64,000 nucleotides of DNA, from NCBI GenBank assembly GCA_020634555.1, contig JACKBK010000001.1, forward strand, positions 67,317 to 131,316. Reading direction: 5' to 3'. Every line of letters starts with the position of its first letter. Within the stretch, counting starts at the first letter, position 1. The notes beneath the pieces are model-generated. The model ran no database searches. It saw only the letters and a program-made list of their open reading frames with translations, and was not told the origin of the DNA. The translations under genes and the position numbers were made by a program. This document shows positions 7,288-29,623 of the stretch, piece by piece. The DNA is from Caldilineae bacterium. GTDB lineage: Bacteria > Chloroflexota > Anaerolineae > JAAEKA01.

Positions 7288-7296
7288 GGCAAGTAG

Positions 7297-7603: not shown

Positions 7604-7682
7604 CGAGCCACATGCTCGATTGCTGCTAGCCGCGCTCCTGTGTTACAATCTTTGTGATTGGACACACGGACGGAAGAAACCT

Positions 7683-9247: not shown

Positions 9248-9252
9248 TGGTC

Positions 9253-9320
9253 GTCATTCCCGCACAGGCGGGAGTCTGGCGCCGTGACGCTGTGGATTCC
9301 CGACCACACGGGAATGACGA
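9253..9320. repeat. REP-like palindromic units (GTCATTCCCGC-N6-GCGGGAGTC and inverted copy GGATTCCCG-N8-CGGGAATGACGA)
   Basis: Each unit is a hairpin of the form ATTCCCG...CGGGAAT; same family as 10795-10950. Confidence 0.7.
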
Positions 9321-9370
9321 GTTACGACGAGCCGTTCGCGATCACCTACGTCACGTTTACGGAGTACGAC

Positions 9371-9631
9371 ATGTCACCGATACCGAAATACGACCCGCCT
9401 CGCGATGCCGTCGAGACTCAGATAGCGACAATCTGGGCGCAAAAGCTCGGGGCGCCGCAGGTTGGCATCCATGATGGCTTCACCGACTTGGGAGGGCATT
9501 CGGTCCAGGCCGCGGAGCTTGTGGCCCAGATTGCTGCCCAGTTTGGCCTGCGCAACGTCAACCAGGAACTGCTGCGGCTGGGAACCGTAGCCGACCAGGC
9601 CGCGTTTATCAAGACACAATTGCCACGTTAA
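9371..9631 (+). CDS. Standalone phosphopantetheine-binding carrier protein (NRPS-type PCP/ArCP, about 87 aa)
   Basis: IATIWAQKLGAPQVGIHDGFTDLGGHSVQAAELVAQI contains the (D)xFFxLGGHS signature of peptidyl carrier domains; GGAG SD 9 nt upstream of ATG 9371. Confidence 0.65.
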   Translation: MSPIPKYDPPRDAVETQIATIWAQKLGAPQVGIHDGFTDLGGHSVQAAELVAQIAAQFGLRNVNQELLRLGTVADQAAFIKTQLPR

Positions 9632-9641
9632 GAGAGGACTT

Positions 9642-10082
9642 ATGGCCAGAGAAATCACGACTTCTATCGACATCGCCGCGCCGGCCAGCGCCGTGTGGGC
9701 GATCCTGACCGACTTCGACAGCTACTCGGAGTGGAACCCGTTCGTGCGCCTGATCCAGGGTGACCTGAAAGAAGACGCCAGGCTGGAGGTGATGCTGGAT
9801 ACGCCGAACCGCAACCCCATGACCTTCAACCCCACGCTGATCAAGCTGACACCGGAGCGCGAGCTGCGCTGGCGGGGCAGGATGTGGAGTCTGCCCGGAC
9901 TCTTCACCGGCGAGCACTTCTTCCAGATCGAACCCGCGGGCGAGAACGCCGTGCATTTCACACACGGCGAGCACTTCTCCGGCGTGGTAGTGCCGTTTGC
10001 ATGGAGCAGAATCGCGGATGACACCCGCGCCGGCTTCGTGAGCATGAACGAGGCGCTCAAGCGCCTGGCTGAGGCAGGCTGA
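9642..10082 (+). CDS. SRPBCC-family protein (polyketide cyclase/dehydrase-like ligand-binding fold)
   Basis: 146 aa; TSIDIAAPASAVWAILTDFDSYSEWNP N-terminus typical of SRPBCC/Bet v1-like proteins. Confidence 0.75.
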   Translation: MAREITTSIDIAAPASAVWAILTDFDSYSEWNPFVRLIQGDLKEDARLEVMLDTPNRNPMTFNPTLIKLTPERELRWRGRMWSLPGLFTGEHFFQIEPAGENAVHFTHGEHFSGVVVPFAWSRIADDTRAGFVSMNEALKRLAEAG

Positions 10083-10087
10083 ACAAG

Positions 10088-10774
10088 TTGGCCGTGACTG
10101 TGAACCAACCTGGCAGCGTTGCACTCATCCCCGCCTACAACGAGGCGGCGCGTATTACACCGGTGATCCGCGGCGTAATGGCGCATCTGCCCGCGCTGGT
10201 GGTGGACGACGGGTCGAAGGACGACACAGCCGCGGTGGCCGAGGCCGCAGGCGCGACCGTCCTTCGCCAGAACCCCAATCAGGGCAAGGGCGCGGCACTG
10301 CGAGCCGGTATGACCTGGGCGTTGGCGCAAGGTTACGGCACCGTTGTCACCCTTGACGCCGATGGACAACACGACCCGGCGGAAATACCGGCGTTTCTGG
10401 CGTGCTATGCTGCGACTACCGCCGACCTCATCATCGGCGCGCGCGATTTCGGGCAGATGCCTGCGGTACGGCGTGCAGCCAACACCATTGGCCGCTGGAG
10501 CTTCTCCTGGGCACTGGGGCAGCCGGTGCAGGACAACCAGTCGGGCTATCGTCTGCTGAGCCGGCGCATGATGGAAGCGATGCTCGGCAGCAGCGAGTCC
10601 GGCTTCGAGTTCGAGGTCGAGATGATCGTCACCTGCGTGCAGCGCGGCTACGCGCTGGACTGGGTGCCCATTCGTACCATCTACGCCGGCGAGACCAGCC
10701 ACATCGACCCATGGACCCACGCCACCAATTGGGTGCGGCTTGTGCGAGAGACACGGCGCAAGATGCGGAGTTGA
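10088..10774 (+). CDS. GT2 family glycosyltransferase, polyprenol-phosphate hexosyltransferase-like (Dpm1/Ppm1/GtrB-like)
   Basis: LIPAYNEAARI ... VVDDGSKDDTAAVA ... TLDADGQHDP (DxD) ... QSGYRLLSRR: canonical GT-A GT2 motifs of Dol-P/polyprenol-P sugar synthases. Confidence 0.8.
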   Translation: MAVTVNQPGSVALIPAYNEAARITPVIRGVMAHLPALVVDDGSKDDTAAVAEAAGATVLRQNPNQGKGAALRAGMTWALAQGYGTVVTLDADGQHDPAEIPAFLACYAATTADLIIGARDFGQMPAVRRAANTIGRWSFSWALGQPVQDNQSGYRLLSRRMMEAMLGSSESGFEFEVEMIVTCVQRGYALDWVPIRTIYAGETSHIDPWTHATNWVRLVRETRRKMRS

Positions 10775-14886: not shown

Positions 14887-15069
14887 GAGAGCCTCCGTTC
14901 GTCGATTCTGAGGCATAGTTTACCTGATCAGGCGAGTTATCAAAAACCGGCAAACATCAACGTCGCACACTTTCTCAGCGTTGCTGAAAGAAAGGGCCGG
15001 TTTGCGGTGGCGTGGCGTATGCCGTACAATTGGCTCAAAGTGTGCATACAGAAGAAAAGATTTTTCACC

Positions 15070-16527
15070 ATGGCTCCAAGCACGATTCTGATTGTTGATG
15101 ACACGCCCGCGATACACGTGATGATCGCGGCATTGCTTCGAGACGATGCATACCAGCTTGAACATGCCTATTCCGGTGAAGAGGCGCTCACCAAGGTGCT
15201 GGCTGTTTCGCCGGATCTGGTGCTGCTGGACATCATGATGCCAGACATCGACGGGTTCGAGGTCTGTCGCCGTTTGCGCAGCCTGCCCGAAGTCAGTGAA
15301 GTACCAATCATCATGCTGACGGCGCTGGCTAACCGGTCGTCGCGTCTGCGCGGGCTTGCTGCCGGCGCAGATGATTTCGTTTCCAAACCCTTCGATCAGG
15401 CCGAGCTACAGGTACGCATCAAGACCATCACTCGCCTGGATCGCTATCGACGCTTGCTGGCAGAACGGGCGCGCTTTGACAGGTTGGTGGAGCTGGCGCC
15501 GGACGGAATCCTGATCATCGACGGCGACGGTGTGGTACGGCTTGCCAACCCTGCCATCATCCGTCTTCTGGGGCTGGAAGACGAGGATGCTGCCGTGGGC
15601 CAGCGATTTAGCGAGTTTGTTGCTTCCACAGAACGCGCCAGTTGGATGAGTTTTTTCTCGCGCGCCAAGCAATCGACCGGCGGCAGGCACATCAGCGAAT
15701 CGACGTTACAGCGAGCCGACGGCGGACAGACCCCGGTTGAGATCACTGCCGGCGCGTTCGAGTGGAACCACACCGATGTTGTTCAGGTGCTGGTGCGCGA
15801 CATCACGCGCCGCAAGCTGGCCGCGGAGGCGTTGGAGCGGCGCAATCGCGAGCTGAGAAGTCTGACAGCCCGATTGGCCGAGGTTCAGGAAGCGGAACAG
15901 CAGAATCTGGCACGAGAGCTGCACGACCGTGTTGGCCAGAGCCTGACCGCTATCAGTCTGAACCTTACCATCATTGACCAGTCGCTGGATAGCGGCCCAC
16001 CGTCGATGATCCGCAGCCGCCTGGATGATTCGTTGCAGTTGCTGGAGGAGACCGCCAGGCAGGTGCGCACCGTCATGACGGAACTGCGGCCACCAATGCT
16101 GGACGACTATGGATTGCTGCCGGCGCTGCGCTGGCAATTGGAGCAGTTCTCTGTCCGCACCGGCATCAACGTCCGCCTTGAGGGAGATGAACCGGTTCCA
16201 CGGCTGCCGCGCGTCGTGGAATTGACGCAGTTTCGCATCTGCCAGGAGGCGTTGAACAACGTTGCAAAGCACGCGGGCGCAGGCGAAGTAACAGTGATGC
16301 TCCTTACCGATCAGCATGAGTCAGTGCTGGTCATTGAAGACAATGGCCGCGGATTTAATGTAGAGGAGCTGTCGGGCGCGACCAGTGAAGGACACTGGGG
16401 GCTGCTGACAATGCAGGAGCGCGCTTGGGCAGTAAGGGGCAGCGTGAATGTGTTCTCGGCTCCCGGCCAAGGCACGCGCGTCGTATCCGAAGTGCCACTG
16501 CAAGCCGGCCAGCGCCCAGCTCCCTGA
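15070..16527 (+). CDS. Hybrid sensor: N-terminal receiver (REC) domain - PAS - HisKA_3/HATPase histidine kinase
   Basis: ILIVDDTPAIHVMIAA ... LVLLDIMMPDIDGFEV (REC); PAS-like middle; H-box ELHDRVGQSLTAISL; ATPase motifs NNVAKHAGA ... DNGRGF ... GLLTMQERA. Confidence 0.8.
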   Translation: MAPSTILIVDDTPAIHVMIAALLRDDAYQLEHAYSGEEALTKVLAVSPDLVLLDIMMPDIDGFEVCRRLRSLPEVSEVPIIMLTALANRSSRLRGLAAGADDFVSKPFDQAELQVRIKTITRLDRYRRLLAERARFDRLVELAPDGILIIDGDGVVRLANPAIIRLLGLEDEDAAVGQRFSEFVASTERASWMSFFSRAKQSTGGRHISESTLQRADGGQTPVEITAGAFEWNHTDVVQVLVRDITRRKLAAEALERRNRELRSLTARLAEVQEAEQQNLARELHDRVGQSLTAISLNLTIIDQSLDSGPPSMIRSRLDDSLQLLEETARQVRTVMTELRPPMLDDYGLLPALRWQLEQFSVRTGINVRLEGDEPVPRLPRVVELTQFRICQEALNNVAKHAGAGEVTVMLLTDQHESVLVIEDNGRGFNVEELSGATSEGHWGLLTMQERAWAVRGSVNVFSAPGQGTRVVSEVPLQAGQRPAP

Positions 16528-16632
16528 CATCCTGGCCGGCTGCTGAAACAATCCCGGAGAGTCATTGGCCAACGCGAGCACGTTGACGGCAAACATCGCT
16601 GCGCCAGTTTGCAGCACGGAGAATCAACAAGG

Positions 16633-16871
16633 ACCCCGGCAATATGAAGGTTAAGAAAATAATCCGGTAATAGGTTGGCGAGGACCGCCCGACCGTGAAC
16701 GGATCGGGCTACCAAGTGAAAGGCCCTCCGGGCCTGGGCTTCGCAGCCCTGTGAGGGGTTCCACTTTGCTGCTTGCGCTCCGGAGCGGGTAGCCGGGAGG
16801 TTTTGCACAGCATCCCGGCGGGCGTGTCGGGCCTATTACCGATTTAAATTCTTAAGGTTCATATTGCCGGG
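16633..16871. other. About 240-bp structured element bounded by about 45-bp imperfect terminal inverted repeats (candidate MITE or structured ncRNA) in a convergent intergenic region
   Basis: Left end ccccggcaatatgaaggttaagaaaataatccggtaatagg, right end cctattaccgatttaaattcttaaggttcatattgccgggg; AT-rich TIRs flank a GC-rich core with multiple internal hairpins. Confidence 0.5.
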
Positions 16872-16906
16872 GCCTTTGTCATCTGAAAAAACGAACTCAT
16901 CGATCG

Positions 16907-18814
16907 TCAGGGTTGGATGACCGAGATCAGCGTGCCGGTGCTGTCGCCATCAGGGTCGTGGTTGTCGGCAGGCACGTACCCATGGGTGCCGCTTACCAAG
17001 TCGACAACCGTGTAGCTGGCAATAGCTACGTTTTGCTTGAAGCTGGGGCTTGTAATCTGACATTGTCCCAAACCATTGGTGGTGCAACTGCCGGCGAAAC
17101 TGTGTTCGCTCCACAGTCCTTCGACAGCAACGTTGGCGACTGGTTGTTCGTGCTCGCCGTGAACAGTGACCGTCAGCGTTGCCGTCCACGCATTACGGCC
17201 CACCCATTGCGCCGTGGCATCGATGTCACCGACGTGAACCGAGTTCACTTGCTGTTCCAACGTGACGGAGGCGATGTTGGAAAACGCAGAGTCTCCCCAC
17301 TCATTGAAGGCCTGGACCTTGTAGAAATACGTCCCGCTGCCCAGGCCAAAGTCGATGTATCCCGTAACGCTAGCAGGCAATACAGCGAGTGTCGTCCAGT
17401 TGGTCTCGTCTACCGACCGCCACAGATAATGGCCGGTTTCGTCGTCGGCATTGTCAGTCCATGTGAGTTCAACGTCAGGGCTGGGAGGTGTGGCAACTGC
17501 TGCCAGGTCCGATGGCGCCGCGGGAGGCATCGGAATCAGAGCCGCGGCTGCCGCCAGATCGAGTTCACCTCCCGTCACCGTCAGACCTGCCAGATCGGTG
17601 ACAGGTCGTGTGGTAGAAAGCAACGAGCTGCGAAGTTCATCCATTGTCAATGCGGGCCGCATAGCGAGCAGTAGGGCCGCTGCGCCGGAAACGTAGGGCG
17701 CGGCCATTGATGTGCCGCTGCTGGTGCCGTAGTTTTGGTACGGGACAGTGCTGGTGATCGCGACCCCGGGCGCGTGCAGATCGACGCTGGCCGGCCCCCA
17801 ATTGGAAAAGCCTGCCGGCTGGTCAGCACTGTTGGCAGCAGCTACGCTAATGATGTTATCGAGGTTAAACGCCGCAGGGTAGAAGGGCGTCTCGTCGATA
17901 TTCTGTCCCATATTGCCGGCGGCCGCAACAAACAGATGGTCAGATGACCCCGCCCTGCGGATGGCGTTGCGCAGAGCGTTGGACCGCTCACCGTTTCCCC
18001 AACTGTTGTTGGAGATTCGGGCTTGGCGGTTGACGGCATACTCGAGCGCCCTGATAGCGTCCGATATGAAACCGCCGTTCGGCCCCATGAAGCGCAGGAT
18101 CATCAACTGGCAATTCCAGATAACCCCGGTAACGCCAATCGAGTTGTTTCCTTTAGCGCAGATCGTCCCTGAGACATGCGTGCCGTGCGCGCCTCCATCC
18201 ATGGGATTGTTATCGTTTTCGAAGAAATCCCAACCGTGGACATCGTCGATGTAGCCGTTGCCGTCGTCGTCAATGCCGTTGTCGGGTATTTCGCCGGGAT
18301 TGGTCCAGATATTATCGGCCAGGTCAGGGTGGGCGTAGTCGGCACCAGTATCGATGACTGCGACAACGACATCGTTGCTCCCCGTCCCTTGCGCCCAAGC
18401 GTCTGGTGCGTTGATCTTGTCCAGGCCCCACAATTGACCGTACAGCGGGTCATTGACCGGTGGAGGCGGGGCCTCCTGCGTGTTAACGACGTAATCTGGT
18501 TCGGCGTACTCGACAAATGGCGAGTCGGACAGCGTGGAAATAGCCTCCTTAACCGAGCTCTGGCCGCTCAGCCTCACATGCACCAGGTTAGGCACGAGCG
18601 TGTACTCATAATCGACCGCGCCGCCTACTGCATCCAGGAGACGCGACTCGGTTACTTTGTCGGTGTGTGGGCGAAAGCTTACCAGCAAAGCATCCGGGGC
18701 ATATGAGATCACGTTGGTTTGGTTGGCCATGGCTGATAGGGGAGTTGCATTGGCAGCAACTCCTGACAGCAAGGCAAATACTGTGAGAATAGAGGACAGG
18801 ACGTGGGGTTTCAT
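16907..18814 (-). CDS. Secreted subtilisin-like serine protease (peptidase S8) with N-terminal propeptide and C-terminal Fn3/beta-sandwich domains
   Basis: Signal peptide MKPHVLSSILTVFALLSGVAANA; catalytic triad motifs VAVIDTGADYAHPDL, HGTHVSGTI, GTSMAAPYVSGAAALL. Confidence 0.85.
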   Translation of the reverse strand: MKPHVLSSILTVFALLSGVAANATPLSAMANQTNVISYAPDALLVSFRPHTDKVTESRLLDAVGGAVDYEYTLVPNLVHVRLSGQSSVKEAISTLSDSPFVEYAEPDYVVNTQEAPPPPVNDPLYGQLWGLDKINAPDAWAQGTGSNDVVVAVIDTGADYAHPDLADNIWTNPGEIPDNGIDDDGNGYIDDVHGWDFFENDNNPMDGGAHGTHVSGTICAKGNNSIGVTGVIWNCQLMILRFMGPNGGFISDAIRALEYAVNRQARISNNSWGNGERSNALRNAIRRAGSSDHLFVAAAGNMGQNIDETPFYPAAFNLDNIISVAAANSADQPAGFSNWGPASVDLHAPGVAITSTVPYQNYGTSSGTSMAAPYVSGAAALLLAMRPALTMDELRSSLLSTTRPVTDLAGLTVTGGELDLAAAAALIPMPPAAPSDLAAVATPPSPDVELTWTDNADDETGHYLWRSVDETNWTTLAVLPASVTGYIDFGLGSGTYFYKVQAFNEWGDSAFSNIASVTLEQQVNSVHVGDIDATAQWVGRNAWTATLTVTVHGEHEQPVANVAVEGLWSEHSFAGSCTTNGLGQCQITSPSFKQNVAIASYTVVDLVSGTHGYVPADNHDPDGDSTGTLISVIQP

Positions 18815-19087
18815 GGGTGGCACCTTTTTGCAACTTGTTTGATACCAATCGAGGTGGGGTTCCATCTCGATTCAACAACAAACTCTCTGTCATCATATTA
18901 CTCAAGGTGTAAGGACATCTCAATAGGAAATAGGTATTAATTTGATTACAATCATGAGGGGAAATCACGATAGACAGATACCGGTTTCGGCGACTCCCGT
19001 CCCGCAACAACGCTCTCATTCATGGTTGTACCGGCAGCGCTTGTGGGTTTAGAGTGAAAGCAGAGGAAGTAGCTGATTGCAGACTCG

Positions 19088-19116
19088 TTTGCCCTTCGGC
19101 CAACTATGTCATACAA
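19088..19116 (+). promoter_or_regulatory. Sigma70-like promoter (TTGCCC-N17-TACAAT) upstream of the LuxR response regulator
   Basis: ttgcccttcggccaactatgtcatacaat about 50 nt upstream of ATG 19167. Confidence 0.5.
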
Positions 19117-19166
19117 TGGCACGCGATGATGGGACGCATTATGGGTTCTGCAACGGAGAAACAATC

Positions 19167-19817
19167 ATGATCCGAGTATACTTGGTTGATGATCACGCCG
19201 TGCTGCGCGACGGTCTGCGCTTTTTGCTGGAAGCGCAAGAGGACATCACCGTGATCGGTGATACCGGCACAGGCAGAGAAGCGTTGACTGAGGTGCAAAA
19301 ACTCAAGCCGGATGTCGTCATCATGGATGTTGCCATGCCTGACCTGAACGGCATCGAAGCTACCGCTCAGATACTCGACACCAATCAGGAAACCCGCGTG
19401 ATCATCCTGTCGATGCAGGGCACGGCCGAGCACGTCTTTCGTGCGTTGCAGGCTGGCGCACAAGGCTATCTGCTCAAGGAATCTGCCGGCAGGGTTTTGG
19501 TGGACGCGGTGCGTTCCGTGCATTCTGGCGGCCGTTACCTGAGCACCGGCATCACTGAAACGCTGGTGGAGGATTACCTTGTTCAACGGACGACCGCTCC
19601 GGCGCACAGCCCGCTGGAACGTCTCAGCCGGCGTGAACGCGAGGTGTTGCAGCTTGTTGTTGAAGGCCGTTCAAGCGCCGAAATCGGCGAGATGCTGGCC
19701 TTGTCGCCTAAGACCATCGATACATACCGCAGCCGGCTGATGCAGAAGCTGGAGATCGGCGATGTGCCCTCTCTGGTCAAGTTCGCAATCCAGCACGGAA
19801 TCATCTCCCTGGAGTAG
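19167..19817 (+). CDS. NarL/FixJ-family response regulator (REC + LuxR-type HTH)
   Basis: MIRVYLVDDHAVLRDGL ... PDVVIMDVAMPDLNG (phospho-acceptor Asp context) ... LSRREREVLQLVVEGRSSAEIGEMLALSPKTIDTYRSRLMQKL (LuxR HTH). Confidence 0.85.
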   Translation: MIRVYLVDDHAVLRDGLRFLLEAQEDITVIGDTGTGREALTEVQKLKPDVVIMDVAMPDLNGIEATAQILDTNQETRVIILSMQGTAEHVFRALQAGAQGYLLKESAGRVLVDAVRSVHSGGRYLSTGITETLVEDYLVQRTTAPAHSPLERLSRREREVLQLVVEGRSSAEIGEMLALSPKTIDTYRSRLMQKLEIGDVPSLVKFAIQHGIISLE

Positions 19818-20028
19818 GCTGGAACCTCCCGATTGACGCCCACCGCGCGCGCCCGGCTCGTGCCGCAGAGGCTGCCAGATGCTCGTCCTCTTAATCTCCT
19901 GACCGAAACTGTCAAGGCTACCTGACTGACGGGGAAAACCACAACTGATAGAATGGGGGTGTTGACATGTGTCGCTGACATGAAGCGACGGCTTGTTCCG
20001 TTGATGGCACATGGTCCAAGAGTCTTCG

Positions 20029-20679
20029 ATGATCAATGTACTGCTTGCCAACGGCAACGGCCTTCAAGGAAACGGTCTGGTCACCAGATTGAACGCTGAA
20101 CCCGATATTCGGGTGATCGGCGAGATCGGGCTGGATCGGCGCGGAATTGAGGAGTTCACGCAGTCGAGTCCCGACGTTGTAGTGATTCGTTCTGTTGGTT
20201 CCGTGGTCAGCGGCATCGAATCGACGTTACGCCTGCGCACGATTCTGCCCAGCATCAAGGTGGTCATCACGTCGCCCATCACCAGTCCCGGGCATCTGAT
20301 GCTTGCGCTGGAAGCTGGTGTCCAGGGCTACGTCGCTGGCAATGCAGGCCAACAGGCACTCATCGGCGCGATCCGGGCGGTAGCTGCTGGCGCCAACTAT
20401 CTGAGCAAGGATGCCGCTGACATGCTGGTGGCTGACTATTTCCATCGACAGCGGAATCTCCAGATGAAGGATCCGTTTAAGCGTTTGAGCAAACGCGAGT
20501 GGGAAGTGCTGAAGATGTTGGTGGAGGGCGAATCGGCATCAAATATCGCTGAAATACTGGCACTGTCCCCCAAGACAGTAGATACCTATCGCCGGCGGTT
20601 GATGCGCAAGTTAGGTGTAACCAACGTTCCGGCGCTGGTCAAGCTGGCGCTGCAACACGGGTTGACATCAGTGACATAG
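20029..20679 (+). CDS. Atypical LuxR-family regulator with degenerate (pseudo-)receiver domain
   Basis: C-terminal LuxR HTH (LSKREWEVLKMLVEGESASNIAEILALSPKTVDTYRRRLMRKL) is intact, but the acidic pocket DD is NG (INVLLANGNGLQ) and the phospho-acceptor position is R/S (PDVVVIRSVGS). Confidence 0.7.
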   Translation: MINVLLANGNGLQGNGLVTRLNAEPDIRVIGEIGLDRRGIEEFTQSSPDVVVIRSVGSVVSGIESTLRLRTILPSIKVVITSPITSPGHLMLALEAGVQGYVAGNAGQQALIGAIRAVAAGANYLSKDAADMLVADYFHRQRNLQMKDPFKRLSKREWEVLKMLVEGESASNIAEILALSPKTVDTYRRRLMRKLGVTNVPALVKLALQHGLTSVT

Positions 20680-20770: not shown

Positions 20771-22159
20771 ATGTTCAAAAGTTCACTCAGCCCACTTTCC
20801 CTGGCAAGGGTAGTGATGGCGATCATGTTGGTTATGGCCATCTTTGCAACTGCCGCCTACGCTGAACCTGCGGCTCCAACATCCGGAGAAGCCTCTGTCC
20901 CGGAGCAATGTGCCAATGGTGGCAACGGTGAAAGCCCCTATTGTATTGGATCGAGCCCTATCGGCTGGATCAATGCCAACGTGAATAGCGGCAAGGGCAA
21001 CTACGCCGAGGATCAATTCGTTCCGGCTCGACTTTTCATAGACGGACTTGTCAGCGGCTACCGCTACTGCTTTGGCTTTGGCTATGATATCTCGCAGGAT
21101 AATCCTGGCCGGCCAGCTGTCGATTACGTTGGTCAGTATAATTTTACGCTCCCCAATGCAAATCCCGCAGCCTACACCGTCCATGATCCTTCTCCCGTCG
21201 CAGGTGTCGTGCCCGCGCCGGACTCGTCCTGGCCAATACCGGTTGACCCGGGTCTGAGCACACAGCGCGTAGGTACCATAGACGGCAATTCTTTCACCGG
21301 ACCAGACCCTGTACCCGGTAACTTGTACATGTGGGGAGGCACAATCACGTCGGTGGGATTCGACGACGGCGAGCCGTATTCCAACCCCAACTCGTTGAGT
21401 GGCGCTACCGGTATTCCTTATGACTCTGGCGCTGTCGGCGAGCAACAATCCACCGAATTCTGCTTCACAGCCAGCAGCACTGAGGCGGTACTGGCTGTGG
21501 GCTTACACCTATCAAAGCTGTCGTATTGGAATGCGCCGGCGTATCCGTCGGGTTCGCCGTTCCATATCTCCAACGGCACGCGCGGTGGCAAGTATTCTCA
21601 CGGGAGAACCAGCGAGACCGATTTATACTGCCTCGACTGTGACGGTGGCGCAGGGACACATGTGAACATTGGGCGCAAGGAAGCACAGTTGTCGGTGGAT
21701 GCAGTCACTGTTCCAGCCGCCGTCACCCTGGCTGACTTCTCGGCCACATGCAGCGGATCAACTCCGGTGATCACCTGGGAAACGGTCAGCGAGCTGACCA
21801 ACCAGGGCTTCAACCTCTACCGCGGCGTGGATTCGGCCAACCCGGACACACAGCTCAACTCGACGCTGATCCCGTCACAGGGACCAGGTAGTGCCCAGGG
21901 TTTCATGTACACCTGGACTGACACCACCGCCCAGCCGGAGACCGAATACTTCTACTGGCTGGAGGACGTGGACTTCAACGGCGGTACCAACATGCATGGG
22001 CCGATCTCGGTCATGTGCTCGGCGCCGACCGCAGTCACCTTGAGTGATCTGAATGCGGACAGCCCGACAGTATCTACGCTCAGCGGTTGGATGATTGCGC
22101 TGGCGCTTGCTGCTCTGCTGGTGGGCCTCATTGCTGTGCGACGAATGCGAACGAACTAG
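20771..22159 (+). CDS. Secreted protein A: signal peptide, Cys-containing N-terminal region, conserved C-terminal beta-domain, TM helix, RRMRTN tail
   Basis: AAGGAG SD; MFKSSLSPLSLARVVMAIMLVMAIFATAAYA signal; C-terminus ...APTAVTLSDLNADSPTVSTLSGWMIALALAALLVGLIAVRRMRTN; paralog of 22602-23882. Confidence 0.6.
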   Translation: MFKSSLSPLSLARVVMAIMLVMAIFATAAYAEPAAPTSGEASVPEQCANGGNGESPYCIGSSPIGWINANVNSGKGNYAEDQFVPARLFIDGLVSGYRYCFGFGYDISQDNPGRPAVDYVGQYNFTLPNANPAAYTVHDPSPVAGVVPAPDSSWPIPVDPGLSTQRVGTIDGNSFTGPDPVPGNLYMWGGTITSVGFDDGEPYSNPNSLSGATGIPYDSGAVGEQQSTEFCFTASSTEAVLAVGLHLSKLSYWNAPAYPSGSPFHISNGTRGGKYSHGRTSETDLYCLDCDGGAGTHVNIGRKEAQLSVDAVTVPAAVTLADFSATCSGSTPVITWETVSELTNQGFNLYRGVDSANPDTQLNSTLIPSQGPGSAQGFMYTWTDTTAQPETEYFYWLEDVDFNGGTNMHGPISVMCSAPTAVTLSDLNADSPTVSTLSGWMIALALAALLVGLIAVRRMRTN

Positions 22160-22232
22160 CAGGTCGCACTCGTCACAATGTGCAAAGCGGTAAGTTGTTC
22201 CTGAACCGCTTTCACTACGGTTTGTTCCTCCC

Positions 22233-22268
22233 AATCGCCGGATCCGACGGATCCGGCGATTGTTTTAT
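22233..22268 (+). terminator. Rho-independent terminator after protein A
   Basis: atcgccggatcc-gac-ggatccggcgat followed by TGTTTTAT. Confidence 0.7.
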
Positions 22269-22601
22269 CGGCGGCGAGTGATAAAAAATGGCATTATAGA
22301 TGCTGCAATATTTGACTTATAGAAGTACGTAACTCTTGACAGATGGAGTCCAGTTTTCCCGGCAGACAAGGGGAAGTAGGGAGGTTATACTTGATACAGA
22401 AAGTACATAGTTCCGAATCTGGGTTGGGTAGGCTTTCTACGCGGTCTCTGGTAGCAGGGCCGTCAACATGATTTCTCTGCACCGGGGGTTCTGGATTTGA
22501 GCCATACCGCCCTGACTATTCGGCACTTACTGTCGGTTGGATCATTTTAGAGCGGAGGTTGCCCATATAGTTCGTGCCTGAAACACGAGAAGGAGGGTTC
22601 C

Positions 22602-23882
22602 ATGTCCATGAAGAGACTGGGTTCACGGCGAGCCGCAAGGCTGGCAACCATATTGGCCTCGACTTTGATACTCGTACTTGCACTTGCCGGTGTCGCAATC
22701 GCCTTGACGGCCGGCAATGTCGATGGTGTCTGGGGCGATCCCCCAGGTACCAATCCCCAGGAGTTCCGCTGGTGCTATGCACCCGACATCACCGACGGTC
22801 CAGCAGGCGACCCGACAAGCTGCAGCACATCCAGCGCGGGTATTCAAAACGAACCAACCAGCACACTCACCGATGAAAACCAGGTTCGCTACGGAGACCC
22901 GGCGGTTGGTTTCGGCAGCGCAAACCGCAGCGGATTTGGCTTCAATGGCAACAACGATGTTGGCTCGATTCCCGCTGATACGCCGTTCTTTCTGGGGCGC
23001 TTCACTCACTACAACCGGCCTATTTACGCATCTCCTATCCTGACAGACATCAGCCTGGATGTGACCGTGTCAGGACTTTTATGCGACGACGACAGCGTGC
23101 CGACAGAAGGCTCTACCCAGACTTTCACCTACGACATCACGCTGGACGAAACCAACAACAATCCCAACAACTGGCCGAACAACACCTGTCCCTACGGTAT
23201 GACCGTGCCGTATAACAACCCCTATGGCGGCTGTGATGACCGGGTAACCATCAGCCAGGTACCAGACACAGAGTTCACCTGTCCCGAGGGTGTGCGCACG
23301 GTGCAAATTCTCGGCTTTATCCCCGGCGACGACTGCGAGCTTGCCTATACTCCTCCGACCTCTTCCGCCTTTGTGACTGCCGAAAGCTCGCAGAACGAAG
23401 CTTGCCTCTGGGCACGCATCTCCGATCCCACGAACCCGCTGGCGATCACGCTAGCCTCCTTCGAAGCCACCGGTCTGGCTGACCGGATTGTGGTTTCCTG
23501 GGAGACGGTCAGTGAGTTGCAGAATGCAGGCTTCAACTTGTATCGCAGCCAGAACTCCTACGAAGTAGGGGAACGTATCAACACAGAGTTGATTCCTTCG
23601 CAGGCGCCCGGCAGCGCACAGGGAGCCGCTTACCTGGTTGAGGATCTCGATGTAACTCCCGGTCAGACCTATTGGTACACCCTGGAAGACGTCGAGTTCA
23701 GCGGTTCGACGGCATTGCATGGCCCCGTCTCGGCGAAGGTATTGGCGCCGACGGCGGTCACGCTCAATGACCTCAGCGCGGATAGCCCGGCCACCTCCGC
23801 GATCAGCGGTTGGATGGTTTTGCTGGCTGTGGGTGTAATGCTGGCCGGCTTTGTTGCCTTCCGGCGGATGCGCACCAACTGA
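22602..23882 (+). CDS. Secreted protein B (paralog of A): signal peptide, FTHYN-containing N-terminal region, same C-terminal domain + TM + RRMRTN tail
   Basis: GAAGGAGGG SD; MSMKRLGSRRAARLATILASTLILVLALAGVAIA signal; C-terminus ...APTAVTLNDLSADSPATSAISGWMVLLAVGVMLAGFVAFRRMRTN. Confidence 0.6.
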   Translation: MSMKRLGSRRAARLATILASTLILVLALAGVAIALTAGNVDGVWGDPPGTNPQEFRWCYAPDITDGPAGDPTSCSTSSAGIQNEPTSTLTDENQVRYGDPAVGFGSANRSGFGFNGNNDVGSIPADTPFFLGRFTHYNRPIYASPILTDISLDVTVSGLLCDDDSVPTEGSTQTFTYDITLDETNNNPNNWPNNTCPYGMTVPYNNPYGGCDDRVTISQVPDTEFTCPEGVRTVQILGFIPGDDCELAYTPPTSSAFVTAESSQNEACLWARISDPTNPLAITLASFEATGLADRIVVSWETVSELQNAGFNLYRSQNSYEVGERINTELIPSQAPGSAQGAAYLVEDLDVTPGQTYWYTLEDVEFSGSTALHGPVSAKVLAPTAVTLNDLSADSPATSAISGWMVLLAVGVMLAGFVAFRRMRTN

Positions 23883-23911
23883 CCCTCGGACCAACAAACA
23901 GACCAATCGAG

Positions 23912-23946
23912 CGCCGGACTCTGCGGAGTCCGGCGTTTCTTGTTTC
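23912..23946 (+). terminator. Rho-independent terminator after protein B
   Basis: cgccggactc-tgcg-gagtccggcg followed by TTTCTTGTTTCC. Confidence 0.7.
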
Positions 23947-23973
23947 CCCTTTTGGTAATTTTCGCAACTAAAT

Positions 23974-24002
23974 TTGACAAAACTATTGTGCATGTATATA
24001 CT
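23974..24002 (+). promoter_or_regulatory. Sigma70 promoter of the suf operon (TTGACA-N17-TATACT)
   Basis: Exact TTGACA at 23974-23979 and TATACT at 23997-24002; implies a TSS near 24009 and supports sufR start at ATG 24049. Confidence 0.65.
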
Positions 24003-24048
24003 AAGTGGCGTTGGTCTGAACGACGATTTACTGAAAGAGCAATCGGCA

Positions 24049-24732
24049 ATGGCGACTCTGGGCATTCAAAACAATTCGACCCCCGCGGGACAGATTCTCG
24101 AATATCTCCTACGCAACACAACCGCCAGCATCAAAGATCTGGAAGACGCGCTGGGTGTGACCGCGACTGCGGTGCGCCAGCAGTTGGCCAGCCTGTTGGC
24201 TGAGGGGTTGATCATAATGACCAGAGAACGCCGGGGAGTCGGCCGGCCGCGCAACGTCTATACACTCACTAACCGGTCGCAGAGCCTGTTCGCCTGCTAC
24301 TCTGACGAGCTGGCGCTGGATCTGATCCACGAGTTGCTGGAGACCGAGGGCACGGCCAAGCTGCGCTACCTGCTCAGCCGCGTCGGCGACAAGTTGGCCG
24401 GGCAATACAGCCGCCAGATCAAAAGTGAGGCGGTGGGCGACCGGATCATCGAGTTGTCAGTTCTGCTGGACCGACGCGGCATCCGCGCCGATGTCGAGAA
24501 CGCCGACGGGGTTATCATCCTGCACGAATACAACTGCCCGTACCACGACCTTTCCTCCGTCCACCGCGATGTATGTGAGATGGAGCGCGAGACCTTTTCC
24601 CAGGTCCTGGGAGCGGACGTGACGCTGGGCAACTGCATCCACGACGGCCACAACAGTTGCCAGTTTGTGGTTGGGACAACTTCCGCCACTGGCGACGTTC
24701 GTCGCACAGCCAGCTACCAACTTACCAAGTAA
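24049..24732 (+). CDS. sufR: SufR-like winged-helix transcriptional regulator with C-terminal Cys-rich (Fe-S sensing) region
   Basis: N-terminal wHTH (IKDLEDALGVTATAVRQQLASLLAEGLII); C-terminal YNCPYHDL ... DVCEMERE ... GNCIHDGHNSCQF cysteine cluster; position immediately upstream of sufCBD. Confidence 0.6.
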   Translation: MATLGIQNNSTPAGQILEYLLRNTTASIKDLEDALGVTATAVRQQLASLLAEGLIIMTRERRGVGRPRNVYTLTNRSQSLFACYSDELALDLIHELLETEGTAKLRYLLSRVGDKLAGQYSRQIKSEAVGDRIIELSVLLDRRGIRADVENADGVIILHEYNCPYHDLSSVHRDVCEMERETFSQVLGADVTLGNCIHDGHNSCQFVVGTTSATGDVRRTASYQLTK

Positions 24733-24780
24733 CCAAGCTACCGAGCTACCAGAAAAAACATCTCAAGGAGAACTATTTTT

Positions 24781-25608
24781 ATGACCAGCGAGCTAGTCAT
24801 TCAGAACCTTCACGTCACCGTCAACGATGGTGAGAAGGAAGTGTTGAAGGGCGTCAATCTCACCATCCGCCAGGACGAGATCCACGCCTTGATGGGCCCC
24901 AACGGCTCTGGCAAGAGCACATTGGCCTATGCAATCATGGGCCACCCGCACTACACCGTTACCGAGGGCGATATTTTGCTGGACGGCGAGAGCGTCCTGG
25001 AGATGGAACCCAACGAGCGGGCGCGCAAGGGGCTGTTCCTGGCGTTCCAGTACCCGGTTGCCGTGCCAGGCGTCAGCATGGCTAACTTTCTGCGAACGGC
25101 AGTCAGCAACGTGCGCGGCTACACTGACCAGCAGCCGACATCCGAGGATGGACGGCCGGGCGTCATCGGCTCCAACCTGATGCCGATGCGCGATTTTCGC
25201 CGCGAGCTGCTGGACAAGATGGACGAGTACCACGTAGACCGCGACTTTGCCAAGCGCTACCTGAACGAAGGGTTCAGCGGCGGCGAGAAGAAGCGGGTCG
25301 AGATCTTGCAGATGGCCATGCTTCAGCCCAAGATCGCCATCATGGATGAGACGGACAGCGGGTTGGACATCGACGCGCTCCGTGTTGTCTCGGACGGTGT
25401 CAACAAGCTGGCCGGGACCGGCTTGGGTATCCTGCTTATCACCCACTACCAGCGCATTCTGGAGTACGTGAAGCCAGACTATGTCCACGTCTTCTACAAC
25501 GGCCGCATCGTGAGGAGCGGCGGCGCCGAGGTGGCGCATGAGCTGGAAGCGCGGGGCTACCAGTCGGTGCGCGAGGAGTTCGGCGAGCCGGAACTGGTTA
25601 CGGCATAA
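24781..25608 (+). CDS. sufC: Fe-S cluster assembly ATPase SufC
   Basis: LVIQNLHVTVNDGEKEVLKGVNLTIRQDEIHALMGPNGSGKSTL...; SufC-specific layout with an ABC signature and no transmembrane partner. Confidence 0.9.
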   Translation: MTSELVIQNLHVTVNDGEKEVLKGVNLTIRQDEIHALMGPNGSGKSTLAYAIMGHPHYTVTEGDILLDGESVLEMEPNERARKGLFLAFQYPVAVPGVSMANFLRTAVSNVRGYTDQQPTSEDGRPGVIGSNLMPMRDFRRELLDKMDEYHVDRDFAKRYLNEGFSGGEKKRVEILQMAMLQPKIAIMDETDSGLDIDALRVVSDGVNKLAGTGLGILLITHYQRILEYVKPDYVHVFYNGRIVRSGGAEVAHELEARGYQSVREEFGEPELVTA

Positions 25609-25751
25609 ATACTGTTTGGTATGTAGTAAGGTGGTAGATTGGCAAGTTTGTAAATTGGTCAATCGCCGATTATCAGGAAGACTTGCTTCACCTGAAATCT
25701 CACCAGTCTACCAATTCACCAAGCCACCAATCTACCCATTTGGAGGACCCA

Positions 25752-27167
25752 ATGGCAACAACAAGTGACCGCGAAGCGCTGGCTGGCGTAAAAGACGAAT
25801 ACCGCTATGGCTTCAGCATGCCGGAAGAGTACGTCTTCAAGTCGCGCAAGGGACTCGATCACGAGATCGTCGACCAGATTTCAGACCTGAAGAACGAGCC
25901 GGACTGGATGCGGGAATTCCGCCACCGTTCGCTGGACATCTTCCTTTCGAAGCCAATGCCGACCTGGGGCGCTGACCTGAGCGAGATCCAGTTCGACGAC
26001 ATCTATTATTACCTCAAACCGACCGAGAAGGCCGGCACGACCTGGGATGACATGCCGGATAGCATGAGAAACACCTTCGAGCGACTGGGCATCCCCGAAG
26101 CCGAGCGCAACTTTCTGGCAGGTGTGGGCGCGCAGTACGAGTCCGAGGTGGTCTACCACTCGCTGCAAGAGCAGTGGACCAAGCTGGGCGTCATCTTCCT
26201 GGACACCGACAGCGGCCTGCGCGAACACGAAGACATCTTCCGCGAGTATTTCGGCACGATCATTCCCCCGTCAGACAACAAGTTCGCCGCATTGAACTCG
26301 GCCGTCTGGTCGGGCGGCAGCTTCGTCTATGTGCCGGCTGGCGTGACGGTGAACATCCCGCTGCAAGCTTACTTCCGCATCAACGCCCAGAACATGGGCC
26401 AGTTCGAGCGGACGCTGATCATCGTCGAAGAGGGCGCCAACGTCCACTATGTCGAAGGCTGCACCGCGCCGATCTACGCCAGCGACTCGCTGCACAGCGC
26501 CGTCGTTGAGATCATCGTCAAGAAGAACGGCCGCTGTCGCTACTCGACCATCCAGAACTGGTCCAGCAACGTCTACAACCTGGTGACTAAACGCGCCACT
26601 GCGGCCGAAGGCGCCACCATGGAGTGGGTTGACGCCAACCTGGGATCCAAGGTGACGATGAAGTACCCGGCGGTCTACATGATGGGGCCGCGAGCGCACG
26701 GCGAGATCCTGTCCATCGCCTTCGCCGGCGAGGGACAAACGCTGGATGCGGGCGGCAAGGTCGTGCATGGCGCGCCCGACACCTCCTCCAAGATCATCTC
26801 CAAGTCGATCAGCAAGAACGGCGGGCGAGCCAGCTATCGCGGCCTGCTGAAGGTCGCCAAGGGCGCCACCGGCTCCAAGTCGACGGTGGTCTGCGACGCG
26901 CTGCTGCTGGATGACCGCAGCCGCTCCGACACCTACCCGTACATCGAGATCGACGAGCAGGATGTGCAGGTCGGCCACGAGGCCAGCGTCAGCAAGGTCA
27001 ACGAAGAGCAGATCTTCTATCTGATGAGCCGCGGCCTGGATGAAGAAGCAGCGGCCACCATGATTGTCAGCGGCTTTATCGAGCCGATGGTCAAGGAACT
27101 GCCCATGGAATACGCGGTCGAGATGAACCGTCTGATCCAGCTTCAAATGGAGGGCAGCATTGGGTAA
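25752..27167 (+). CDS. sufB: Fe-S cluster assembly protein SufB
   Basis: 471 aa; conserved SufB core ([13 protein letters not shown] ... [18 protein letters not shown] ... [24 protein letters not shown]); GGAGGA SD. Confidence 0.9.
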
Positions 27168-27311
27168 GGGAAACAAGTAGACAAGGAAACTGGTAAACAA
27201 CTAGACAAGTAGGCTGGAAAGCCGGGATACAACGGAACCAGAAGCAACTTGTATACCCTTGTCTACCTGTTTACCTGTCTACTTCCTCTCCTGCCCATTT
27301 GAGAGACAGAT

Positions 27312-28643
27312 ATGACTACACAAGTATTGACAAAAAGCGAAATTGGTTTGAACGGCGATGCCGTGGCGACGCTGTCGCAACAAAAACAGGAACCGACCTG
27401 GTTCACAGATCTGCGCCATCGTGCCTGGCGGTTCTTTGAGGAGATTCCGTGGCCGACTGGCAACGAAGAGGAGTGGCGGCGCACACGCCTGACCGGGCTG
27501 GACATCGCCGACTACAAACTAGCCAGCGGGACTCCAGAAGCAAGCAGCGATGCCGCCGACCTGGTCCCCTACTTGCGTGACGAACTTGACTCGATCAATG
27601 CTGCCGCCGCGTTGGTAACTGAGGACGGCACGGTGCGCTATCGCGGGGTTGACGCCGGTCTCGCGGCCAAAGGCGTGATCTTCACGGATCTCGACACCGC
27701 TATTCGCCAGCACCCGGAGCTGATTCAGACCTACTTCATGACCAATAATGTCGCGGTTGACGCCAACAAGTTCACCGCGCTGCACGCCGCGTTTGTTACC
27801 GGCGGCGCGGTGCTTTACGTGCCGCGCAACGTGCAGGTTGAGTTGCCGTTCCACGGCGTGACCGCGGTCAGCGGCGGCGTGGCGGACTTTGCCCACACGT
27901 TGATCATCGCCGAGGAGAACAGCCAGGTTACCTACGTGGACGACCTGATCAGCCAGGACAGCAACGCAACCTTCCACAGCGGCGTGGTGGAGATCTTCGC
28001 CGGCCCCGGCGCTGTTGTGCGCTACATGCACGGCCAGGACTGGAACACCAACACCTGGCACTTCAGCACCCAACAGGCGCAGATGCTGCGCGACGCCCAG
28101 CTTACCTGGATTCTCAGCTCCTGGGGCAGTCGGCTGAGCAAGATCAACCTGGAGATGCAATTGCTGGAGCGCGGCGGCCACGGCGAACTGTTGGGCCTCT
28201 ACTTCCCCAGCGGCCGCCAGCACATCGATCATCACACCATGCAAAACCACTTCGCCGACAATTGCACCAGCGACCTGCTCTTCAAGGGCGCGCTGCGCGA
28301 CCGGGCGAGATCGGTCTATTCCGGCAGCATCAAGGTCTGGCCAGCAGCGCAGAAGACTGACGCCTATCAGAAGAACAACAATCTGGTGCTGGATCGGCGT
28401 GCGCGCGCCGATAGCATACCTGGGTTGGAGATCGAAGCCGACGACGTGCGCTGCACCCATGGCGCCACCGTCAGCAAGATCGAGCCCGAGTACCTGTTCT
28501 ACCTCATGGCGCGCAGCCTGACCAAGTTCCAGGCCGAGCAGATGATTGTCACCGGCTTCTTCGAGGAAGTGCTCAACCGCGTCCCGGTCGAAGGCGTGCG
28601 CAACAAACTTGAACAGGTGATCGCTCGTAAGATCCACATGTAG
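27312..28643 (+). CDS. sufD: Fe-S cluster assembly protein SufD
   Basis: 443 aa; paralogous to SufB in the C-terminal beta-helix region; follows sufB. Confidence 0.85.
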   Translation: MTTQVLTKSEIGLNGDAVATLSQQKQEPTWFTDLRHRAWRFFEEIPWPTGNEEEWRRTRLTGLDIADYKLASGTPEASSDAADLVPYLRDELDSINAAAALVTEDGTVRYRGVDAGLAAKGVIFTDLDTAIRQHPELIQTYFMTNNVAVDANKFTALHAAFVTGGAVLYVPRNVQVELPFHGVTAVSGGVADFAHTLIIAEENSQVTYVDDLISQDSNATFHSGVVEIFAGPGAVVRYMHGQDWNTNTWHFSTQQAQMLRDAQLTWILSSWGSRLSKINLEMQLLERGGHGELLGLYFPSGRQHIDHHTMQNHFADNCTSDLLFKGALRDRARSVYSGSIKVWPAAQKTDAYQKNNNLVLDRRARADSIPGLEIEADDVRCTHGATVSKIEPEYLFYLMARSLTKFQAEQMIVTGFFEEVLNRVPVEGVRNKLEQVIARKIHM

Positions 28644-28777
28644 ATCAGTGACCAGTAAGTAGTTATCAGTTATCAGAAAGAATCGCCAGAAGTGTATTGG
28701 TCAATGAAGCAGTGCAGTCCGCTGGTTACTGATAACTAATAACTGATCACTGGCCACGTCCCGAGAAGGAGTATTGT

Positions 28778-29623
28778 ATGAAAGGCTATGTCCATCCCGA
28801 GGTGCTGGTGACGACCAGTTGGGTCGCCGAACATTTGAAGGATCCATCGGTACGTGTCGTCGAGTCCAACGAGGATATTCTGCTGTACGACCTGGGCCAC
28901 ATCCCCGGCGCTGTGCAGATTGACTGGCAGAAGGACCTCAACGACGCCGTGCGCCGCGACTATCTGACGCGCGAGGAATTCGAGGCGCTGCTTTCGGCCA
29001 ACGGCATCGGCAACGATACCACGGTCGTCTTCTACGGCGACAAGAACAACTGGTGGGCCTGCTATGCCTTCTGGGTGTTTCACTTGTTCGGACACGACAA
29101 CGCCAAAGTGATGGACGGCGGACGCGCCAAGTGGGAGGCCGAAGGGCGGCCCATGGTCAAGGACACACCTGACTATCCGGCAACTCCGTACCACGCCCAG
29201 GCGCGCGCCGACTACAAGATTCGTGCCTACCGCGATCAGGTGTTGTCTCACGTGCAGGCGAGCCAGCCGCTGGTCGATGTGCGCTCCCCCGGAGAGTACC
29301 GCGGCGAGTTGCTGCACATGCCCAACTATCCTCAGGAAGGCGCGATACGCGGCGGCCATATCCCAGGCGCAAAGAACATCCCTTGGGCGCGGGCCGCCAA
29401 CGCCGACGGCACCTTCAAACCGGCTGACGAGCTGCGCGCGATCTACGAGGAGGAGCAAGGCCTGCGACCTGACGACAGCGTTGTGGCCTACTGCCGCATC
29501 GGCGAGCGCTCCAGTCACACGTGGTTCGTGCTGACCTACCTGCTGGGCTATCCCAACGTGCGCAACTACGACGGCAGTTGGACCGAGTGGGGCAATCTGG
29601 TGGGAGTACCCATCGAACGCTAG
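28778..29623 (+). CDS. Two-domain rhodanese: thiosulfate/3-mercaptopyruvate sulfurtransferase (CysA/SseA-like)
   Basis: Active-site loop [14 protein letters not shown] in the second rhodanese domain; inactive N-terminal rhodanese domain; last gene of the suf operon. Confidence 0.85.

Follow-up and report, generated by a model that had tools for sequence, protein, structure and literature searches.

A C-terminal cassette of an FN3-like domain, a PTAVTL motif and a hydrophobic helix as a candidate surface anchor in Anaerolineae-type Chloroflexota

Several described systems combine a C-terminal signal with a folded domain. In the PGF-pre-PGF plus PGF-CTERM arrangement of Euryarchaeota, a conserved folded domain as a rule directly precedes a short tail of hydrophobic helix and basic residues; the cargo is varied, and the enzyme is ArtA. 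The C-terminal domain (CTD) of type IX secretion system (T9SS) cargo in diderm Bacteroidota is a β-sandwich of about 100 amino acids (aa) that serves as an address tag on unrelated secreted proteins and is removed by PorU. Anaerolineae-type Chloroflexota are filamentous monoderms, mostly uncultured, that live in large numbers in soils, sediments and activated sludge; to our knowledge, almost nothing has been described of the way in which they display surface proteins. This report examines two genes, here called A and B, in a 64,000-nucleotide stretch of the Caldilineae bacterium assembly GCA_020634555.1 (contig JACKBK010000001.1, forward-strand positions 67,317 to 131,316). This whole stretch is referred to as the window, and coordinates are counted from its first nucleotide. 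The products of A and B share a C-terminal cassette that recurs on unrelated secreted proteins across the lineage. Its fold, distribution and possible mode of action are described below, together with a comparison with known anchors and sorting signals.

The last 150 aa of proteins A and B align without gaps, with 55% identity (E-value 2e-49). This shared region had been noticed in the original prediction, made by a model from the sequence alone, and most of what was said there about the two genes holds. Both open reading frames (ORFs) are present (Table 1), both N-termini fit Sec signal peptides when judged by eye, and each gene is followed by its own hairpin with a T-rich tail. A or B contains each of the sequence elements picked out at the time, namely GRFTHYN, the Cys-rich stretch CANGGNGESPYC, ADSP..SGW, the hydrophobic segment and RRMRTN at the end, and the N-terminal regions are divergent as claimed, since the two proteins do not align outside their last 150 aa. 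In order, the cassette comprises a β-sandwich resembling a fibronectin type III (FN3) domain, the PTAVTL motif, an Ala/Pro-rich spacer, an Ala/Gly-rich helix and an Arg cluster at the C-terminus. The "conserved C-terminal domain" of 150 aa is therefore real as a region, but about 100 aa of it are a divergent FN3-like domain, and the tail proper is confined to approximately the last 44 residues.

The structure of the cassette was modelled with AlphaFold2 for the last 150 aa of B, using an alignment of 92 sequences, with a mean predicted local distance difference test score (pLDDT) of 89. In this model, residues 7–103 form the β-sandwich (pLDDT 95–98), residues 104–127 are coil, with pLDDT falling from 91 to 63, and residues 128–149 form a helix. 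The best Foldseek matches in the PDB are FN3 domains, namely those of PTPRD (1x5z) and Ihog (2ic2) and the Fn3-like domain of C. thermocellum (3mpc), with TM-scores of up to 0.74 on the target and sequence identities of 13–20%. The β-sandwich is thus predicted to have the fibronectin type III fold. At the level of sequence it falls outside Pfam fn3 (PF00041): no Pfam family matches A or B at E≤1, NCBIfam gives no match to the cassette region even at E≤1, and no PDB sequence relative is found at E<0.6. The literature searched contains no description of the cassette.

The anatomy of the tail is best seen in the family as a whole, for which 249 clear, non-redundant tails were compared. The signature reads P-T-A-V-T-L-x-x-hydrophobic-x-A; the positions that follow P-T-A-V are occupied by T/R, L/V, x, x, L/V/F/M, x and A, and P, T, A and V are each at least 90% conserved in the 92-sequence alignment. 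A spacer rich in Ala, Pro, Gly and Ser separates the PTAV motif from the helix by 9–28 aa (median 15). Ala (32%), Leu (24%), Gly (12%) and Val (11%) predominate in the hydrophobic segment, whose median length is 18 aa; for 87% of tails, its best 19-aa window has a Kyte–Doolittle value of 1.6 or more. Nearly half of the tails (46%) have a Trp no more than three residues from the point where the helix starts. Beyond the helix there are 0–33 residues (median 7), and 233 of the 249 tails have at least two Arg or Lys among the first five of these. In the 121 homologues of the B tail the corresponding pattern is ...YWYWLEDVDLxGxTTLHGPVSxTxQAPTAVTLxxLxA, followed by a spacer, a hydrophobic stretch and RRRR. 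ADSP-x5-SGW and RRMRTN, first singled out as a possible sorting or anchor signal, prove to be a local variant that is limited to A, B and three close relatives, P0226, P0263 and P0089 (P numbers denote database proteins); further B orthologues terminate in ...FGAFALRQKR.., and the family-wide signature is PTAVTL.

All 121 close homologues retrieved with the last 150 aa of B come from Anaerolineae/Caldilineae metagenome-assembled genomes (MAGs) or metagenomes. When one genome for each GTDB species was scanned, 156 relatives came to light, of which 77 loci (L numbers) were examined. These loci belong without exception to Chloroflexota (Anaerolineales, Caldilineales, Ardenticatenales and Thermoflexales), save for one contig labelled "Thauera". 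They hold 112 ORFs with the domain (stop-to-stop lengths of 56–3480 aa); tandem gene arrays are frequent, and in every ORF among those listed the cassette is at the extreme C-terminus. At least 82 ORFs from 26 assemblies have the full helix-plus-basic tail, with, as lower bounds, 17 such ORFs in one MAG and four or more in each of nine. No tail without an FN3 domain turned up in the examined loci. Among 1.84 billion cluster representatives (50% identity), a profile search found 1107 matches at E≤1e-30; at E≤1e-10 there were 17582. The 61337 matches at E≤1e-3 are not counted as members, as they include generic FN3-like repeat proteins that end differently (P0189 and P0164, for instance). The original prediction had allowed for a tail found in these two paralogues and nowhere else; instead, hundreds of unrelated proteins from at least 26 assemblies carry the cassette. 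As to the outlying contig (L072; JBEOKH010000303.1, Thauera sp. MAG), the domain score and the last 60 aa of its ORF are the same as those of ORFs on two contigs (L070 and L071) of Caldilineales and unclassified MAGs, and it is probably a mis-binned contaminant.

The proteins that carry the cassette otherwise have little in common. The 134 full-length members range from 128 to 2855 aa and have unrelated N-terminal domains; 6496 of 6903 member pairs (94%) show no similarity outside the cassette. Across 77 members, 47 Pfam families were found that are typical of surface proteins, including SdrD_B, SpaA, CarboxypepD_reg, GEVED, FG-GAP, alpha-amylase, Laminin_G_3, Big_5, cohesin, DUF11 and S8. An N-terminal signal peptide was recognised by a crude hydropathy rule in 90 of the 134, many of the failures being mis-called starts or fragments.

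Homologues of the N-terminal domain of B show that the cassette is interchangeable with known sorting signals, whose position it occupies. Residues 80–241 of B match the choice-of-anchor K model NF038131 with 57 bits (cutoff 30). The THxN family PEP-CTERM model NF038125 gives 60.4 bits, below its cutoff of 85, because B has no PEP-CTERM; the match stops at residue 275. Other proteins with this domain end in the cassette, in FN3 alone, in FN3 plus a short ...YLPLVxR-type ending, in the tail without FN3, in PEP-CTERM, in an IPTL-like tail, or in nothing. P0298 has a bona fide PEP-CTERM (TIGR02595, 17.5 bits, cutoff 16). P0323, P0326 and P0331 terminate in VPTMTQWG-helix-RRR and look like IPTL/XrtH-type cargo, to judge by this ending; P0326 scores 30.8 bits with the NCBIfam model "midcut-by-XrtH", below the cutoff of 45. 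In P0275 and P0330, the tail follows directly on the choice-of-anchor K domain (P0275 reads ...SSLAVSLSSLGASTLSPLW-helix-RKRRA), an arrangement that looks like the outcome of a deletion between two β-strand A repeats flanking the FN3 domain.

The origin of PTAVTL can be traced in the FN3-like domain itself. Its β-strand A reads P-L-A-V-T-L-A-S-F-x-A, with positions conserved at 74–97% except for Ser (52%), and the Pro of this strand lies exactly 21 residues ahead of the invariant Trp of β-strand B. In the tails of both A (P419 to W440) and B, the Trp of SGW likewise follows the Pro by exactly 21 residues, and in tandem-domain proteins the position of PTAVTL is that of β-strand A of the next FN3 copy. 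Because of the repeated strand, the Pro–Trp spacing and the position in tandem copies, the tail is a truncated extra FN3 repeat that keeps β-strand A, the A–B loop and the Trp of β-strand B, with the remainder replaced by a membrane helix. The motif is not merely decaying; it has come under constraint in its own right. Third codon positions of the PTAVTL block are only 47% identical between genes A and B, and along the whole cassette the values are 27–67%; this low identity excludes recent gene conversion as the source of the shared tail.

How might such a cassette work? With slightly better than an even chance, in our estimate, A and B are cargo of a lineage-wide surface-anchoring cassette of Anaerolineae-type Chloroflexota, in which the helix is a stable type I anchor and the FN3-like domain a stalk. 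The N-terminal signal peptide would direct export through Sec. The Ala/Gly-rich segment would then stop transfer and leave the Arg cluster in the cytoplasm, in keeping with the positive-inside rule, and the product would be a type I single-pass membrane protein. The FN3-like stalk and the flexible Ala/Pro-rich spacer could hold the variable cargo domain off the membrane. A full FN3 domain nearly always precedes the tail, which fits a juxtamembrane stalk. Both the topology and retention by the helix without cleavage are what we infer from the architecture.

This relatively simple picture is complicated by several observations that weigh against a permanent anchor, most of which speak for a second reading. 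The helix has 16 residues or fewer in 35% of tails, and, measured against the polytopic membrane proteins encoded in the same MAGs, it is rich in Ala (32%, against 15.6%) and poor in Ile (3%, against 8%) and Phe (1%, against 6.5%); a short, Ala/Gly-rich helix is seen more often in cleaved sorting signals than in permanent anchors. PEP-CTERM and IPTL-like tails, which the cassette replaces in homologues, are cleaved signals, and in haloarchaea the S-layer glycoprotein had for a long time been regarded as anchored by its helix when processing by ArtA at its PGF-CTERM was demonstrated. The tail motif has Thr (92%) where real A strands have Leu (76–87%), and the 15-aa block with PTAVTL is the best-conserved block between proteins A and B (87% aa identity).

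In this second reading, to which we give a tentative place as possible though rather unlikely, the tail would be a sorting signal specific to Anaerolineae ("PTAVTL-CTERM"). Following Sec export and transient retention, an enzyme (sortase-like, CPBP/rhomboid-like or other) would cut the tail inside its Ala/Gly-rich helix, or else at PTAVTL or beyond it, and the cargo with its FN3 domain would then be joined to wall, lipid, S-layer or sheath, as with LPXTG, PEP-CTERM, PGF-CTERM or MYXO-CTERM proteins. The attributes by which sorting signals are recognised have been listed (Haft, bioRxiv 10.1101/2023.06.07.544157, section 5), and include a location close to the C-terminus (1), multiple copies per genome (2), a strongly hydrophobic segment of helix length (4), a terminal group of two to five basic residues (5), an N-terminal signal peptide on most members (6), pairs that share the signal region only (7) and homologues in which the signal is absent or changed (8). 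The cassette displays attributes 1, 2, 4, 5, 7 and 8, with the caveat for attribute 7 that the shared region is 150 aa long and not about 30; attribute 6 probably applies, to judge by the crude test given above. Attribute 3 applies in part: PTAV is highly conserved, yet it stands 9–28 aa ahead of the helix and is a homologue of an FN3 β-strand A, and the homology of the cassette begins about 100 aa earlier, at the FN3 domain. The Thr specific to the tail and the strongest purifying selection, on the PTAVTL block, speak for a separate constraint on the motif; RRMRTN is identical in the two paralogues, whose synonymous sites are saturated; and P0275 and P0330 carry the tail without an FN3 domain. 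Against cleavage stand the variable, low-complexity spacer between motif and helix, where motifs of known systems abut the helix, the descent from an FN3 strand, which explains the signature, and the almost constant association of the tail with a whole FN3 domain.

Comparison with curated sorting-signal hidden Markov models (HMMs) argues in the same direction. All scores on the tails are below cutoff, and most matches cover no more of a profile than its helix and Arg part, so that the motif is indeed, as first suggested, unlike LPXTG, PEP, GlyGly and the other known tags. For LPXTG/sortase, there is no TIGR01167 match on the tails of A and B and no LPXTG, and one homologue reaches 14.9 bits (cutoff 15.9) with the helix part only. 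For PEP-CTERM/exosortase, TIGR02595 does not match the two tails, with P0298 as positive control. The IPTL-CTERM model TIGR04174 gives 8.3–11.5 bits (cutoff 20.5), again with the helix part only; MYXO-CTERM and JDVT-CTERM give 7–14 bits (cutoffs 20 and 27), and the tail has no Cys. For GlyGly-CTERM/rhombosortase, there is no match at E≤10 and no GG motif is visible. Two local resemblances were also considered. VLAPTA (LAPTA in B) was rejected as the LAxTG of a class E sortase, as its first position varies (Q/V/S/T) and a long stretch separates it from the helix; STLSGW was ruled out as IPTLxxWG by the low HMM score and a Trp out of register with the profile.

A processing enzyme was sought in the window and around the 77 loci. 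Among 32 Pfam-scanned window ORFs, which include all polytopic membrane proteins, there is no sortase, exosortase, rhomboid or CPBP-type gene, which bears out the original statement that the window holds no candidate. When the gene-like ORFs of the 77 loci were clustered, no neighbour family occurred in more than seven loci, and the most recurrent families that could be placed (a SufC-type ABC ATPase and a LuxR-type regulator) reflect synteny with the window. Pfam annotation of 47 polytopic neighbours gave transporters and respiratory subunits and no enzyme candidate, among the first 25 of 40 families listed. The lack of a neighbouring enzyme is weak evidence, since the gene for a many-to-one sorting enzyme usually lies in another part of the genome. 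The first proposal, a new sorting tag or a membrane anchor, is upheld as far as a genuine conserved anchor-type module is concerned; the suggested cleavage or sorting by an enzyme is not supported.

A third reading keeps the helix as anchor and gives the motif a task of its own. The PTAVTL remnant could act as a β-strand donor that pairs with the FN3 domain of a neighbour, or caps its own, and so build a surface lattice or sheath. A β-strand A that lacks its own domain and is still at least 90% conserved would be in line with this idea, as would the many paralogues per genome with the same FN3 domain. The AlphaFold2 model has pLDDT 91 for residues 101–110, which hold P107–V110, and 75 for residues 111–120, and as a monomer it assigns no secondary structure to the PTAVTL segment. 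The proposal is nevertheless speculative, and core-type packing is weakened by the replacement of the Leu and Phe of real A strands with Thr and Leu/Val, respectively; we consider it improbable. Finally, a private tail anchor of a small paralogue family, or a chance similarity, can be dismissed: the exact wording ADSP..SGW..RRMRTN is restricted to the five proteins named above, but the similarity between A and B and the occurrence of the cassette on so many unrelated proteins refute it.

The coordinates of A and B, their parts and the adjacent genes are collected in Table 1. The ATG start of A is that of an identical database protein, P0346 (462 aa, locus tag H6649_00365), and an exact copy of protein B occurs in GCA_020433985.1. 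The signal peptide of A has, by eye, a basic n-region, a hydrophobic core and a cleavage site of AYA type. The N-terminal part of A (window 20864–21706, aa 32–312), which holds the Cys-rich stretch, is nearly orphan: in a database of 5.8 billion sequences its relatives are the identical P0346 and P0226 (82% identity), with no others, and A has no Pfam or NCBIfam match. Full-length A gave an AlphaFold2 model with pLDDT 31 from a three-sequence alignment, in which no fold could be read for this domain.

Table 1. Positions of genes A and B, the parts of their products and neighbouring features (window coordinates).
Feature	Position	Strand	Details
Hybrid sensor kinase (REC-PAS-HisKA_3-HATPase)	15007–16527	+	Pfam; orthologues adjoin cassette genes in L001 and L037
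S8 subtilase	16907–18865		Pfam
Two NarL/LuxR-type response regulators	19077–20679	+	Directly upstream of A; Response_reg + GerE; kept upstream of cassette genes in L001 and L037
Gene A	20771–22159	+	462 aa: signal peptide, near-orphan N-terminal domain, C-terminal cassette (candidate anchor)
A, putative signal peptide	20771–20863	+	aa 1–31; MFKSSLSPLSLARVVMAIMLVMAIFATAAYA followed by EP (...AAYA, then EP); from sequence, by eye
A, FN3-like β-sandwich	21713–22015	+	aa 315–415; gapless against the B domain, profile 195 bits; fold predicted from the B model
A, tail signature PTAVTLSDLNA	22025–22057	+	aa 419–429; vestigial FN3 A strand
A, spacer DSPTVSTLSG	22058–22087	+	aa 430–439
A, hydrophobic helix WMIALALAALLVGLIAV	22088–22138	+	aa 440–456; hydropathy scan; equivalent B segment modelled as helix
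A, basic C-terminus RRMRTN	22139–22156	+	aa 457–462
Terminator-like hairpin 3' of A	22232–22272	+	Hairpin 22232–22262, 14 bp stem, 9 G-C pairs, then TTTTAT
Gene B	22602–23882	+	426 aa: signal peptide, choice-of-anchor K domain, C-terminal cassette (candidate anchor)
B, putative signal peptide	22602–22703	+	aa 1–34; MSMKRLGSRRAARLATILASTLILVLALAGVAIA followed by LT (...VAIA, then LT); from sequence, by eye
B, choice-of-anchor K / THxN-type domain	22716–23426	+	aa 39–275; contains GRFTHYN; NF038131
B, FN3-like β-sandwich	23436–23738	+	aa 279–379; AlphaFold2 pLDDT 95–98, six or seven strands
B, tail signature PTAVTLNDLSA	23748–23780	+	aa 383–393
B, spacer DSPATSAISG	23781–23810	+	aa 394–403; modelled coil, pLDDT falling to about 63
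B, hydrophobic helix WMVLLAVGVMLAGFVAF	23811–23861	+	aa 404–420; hydropathy scan and model helix
B, basic C-terminus RRMRTN	23862–23879	+	aa 421–426
Terminator-like hairpin 3' of B	23909–23948	+	Hairpin 23909–23938, 13 bp stem, 8 G-C pairs, then T-rich tail

The location of the genes behind two LuxR regulators and next to an S8 protease, as originally described, is confirmed by Pfam. Around A and B, the gene order of window 15007–20679 and 23974–29623 is shared with three loci of Anaerolineae-type MAGs (L001, L037 and L058): a sensor kinase, two LuxR-type regulators, one or more cassette proteins, a MarR/HTH regulator, SufC-SufB-SufD and a rhodanese. The LuxR-type regulators may control the cassette genes. 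Protein A and the S8 protease are missing from these three syntenic loci, and the protease is ruled out as the processing enzyme on this ground.

A second recurrent C-terminal ending was seen in the same MAGs, on large secreted proteins, with the pattern ...(R/K)x(V/I/L)(Y/F)(L/M)P(L/M/I)(V/L/I/M)x(R/K). Examples are YRQVYLPLVWR, MRKLFLPMLRVR and HRRFLPLILRR; these endings lack a helix, and some come directly after the same FN3-like domain. Of 688 ORFs, 10 have this ending, where the frequency at internal positions predicts 0.26 (L073:7693–8766, L074:1948–5397, L077:3–3416 and 6767–10342, L022:13731–16622, L028:10716–13340, L033:17600–19369, L042:10675–13542, L043:2218–3585 and L005:7366–10920). 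No NCBIfam model matches it, and it may be a separate C-terminal tag. In the window, the ORF at 3545–4051 (+) has MYLPMV about 20 aa from its end.

Two other window genes deserve mention. The ORF at 40182–43277 (−) encodes a class A penicillin-binding protein of 1031 aa (transglycosylase plus transpeptidase), with about 360 residues past the transpeptidase domain that have no Pfam assignment. In the part of the window marked by 56145–58376 (−) and 61311–62408 (+), a multihaem cytochrome c of 743 aa (NapC/NirT N-terminus plus c7/c3 domains), unrelated to the cassette, has a cytochrome b gene and a two-component pair in its vicinity.

The cassette, which Pfam and NCBIfam miss, marks a large share of the Anaerolineae surface proteome, including adhesin-like repeat proteins, amylases, proteases and cohesin- and FG-GAP-type proteins. 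A model built from it would improve annotation and the prediction of localisation for thousands of MAG proteins. If the tail is cleaved, there is a new sorting system, with an enzyme to be found and dozens of surface proteins attached per cell. If it is not, these monoderms display surface proteins by means of a helix anchor and an FN3 stalk, where others use sortase-type systems, and the cassette becomes a clear case of a membrane anchor that arose from a truncated domain repeat.

Set against known systems, the cassette shares much with the tripartite sorting signals. Like these, it occupies the extreme C-terminus of proteins that probably have, for the most part, signal peptides, and consists of a motif, a helix and an Arg cluster with few residues beyond; it is present in many copies on unrelated cargo, is restricted to a lineage, and is swapped for other endings in homologues from other lineages. 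Unlike these, its motif, PTAVTL, lies at a distance from the helix, is a relic of an FN3 strand and nearly always stands behind a full FN3-like domain; we know of no cognate enzyme. The THxN PEP-CTERM family has the choice-of-anchor K domain in common with B, which ends in the FN3/PTAVTL/helix cassette in place of a PEP-CTERM. The T9SS CTD is likewise a C-terminal β-sandwich, but it has neither helix nor Arg tail, and no Pfam or NCBIfam T9SS model matches A or B. PGF-pre-PGF plus PGF-CTERM has a layout like that of the cassette; lineage and motif (PGF) differ, and no NCBIfam match to it is found on A or B. In type I receptors such as PTPRD, the insulin receptor and Ihog, the order of ectodomain, FN3, linker, single helix and basic residues on the inside is the same as in the cassette, but these proteins are eukaryotic and have large cytoplasmic domains, whereas the median post-helix part of the cassette is seven residues. 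The cassette is large and lineage-defining, and uncatalogued in the copies of Pfam and NCBIfam searched; among known systems, its layout most resembles that of PGF-pre-PGF plus PGF-CTERM or the juxtamembrane FN3 domain and helix of the receptors.

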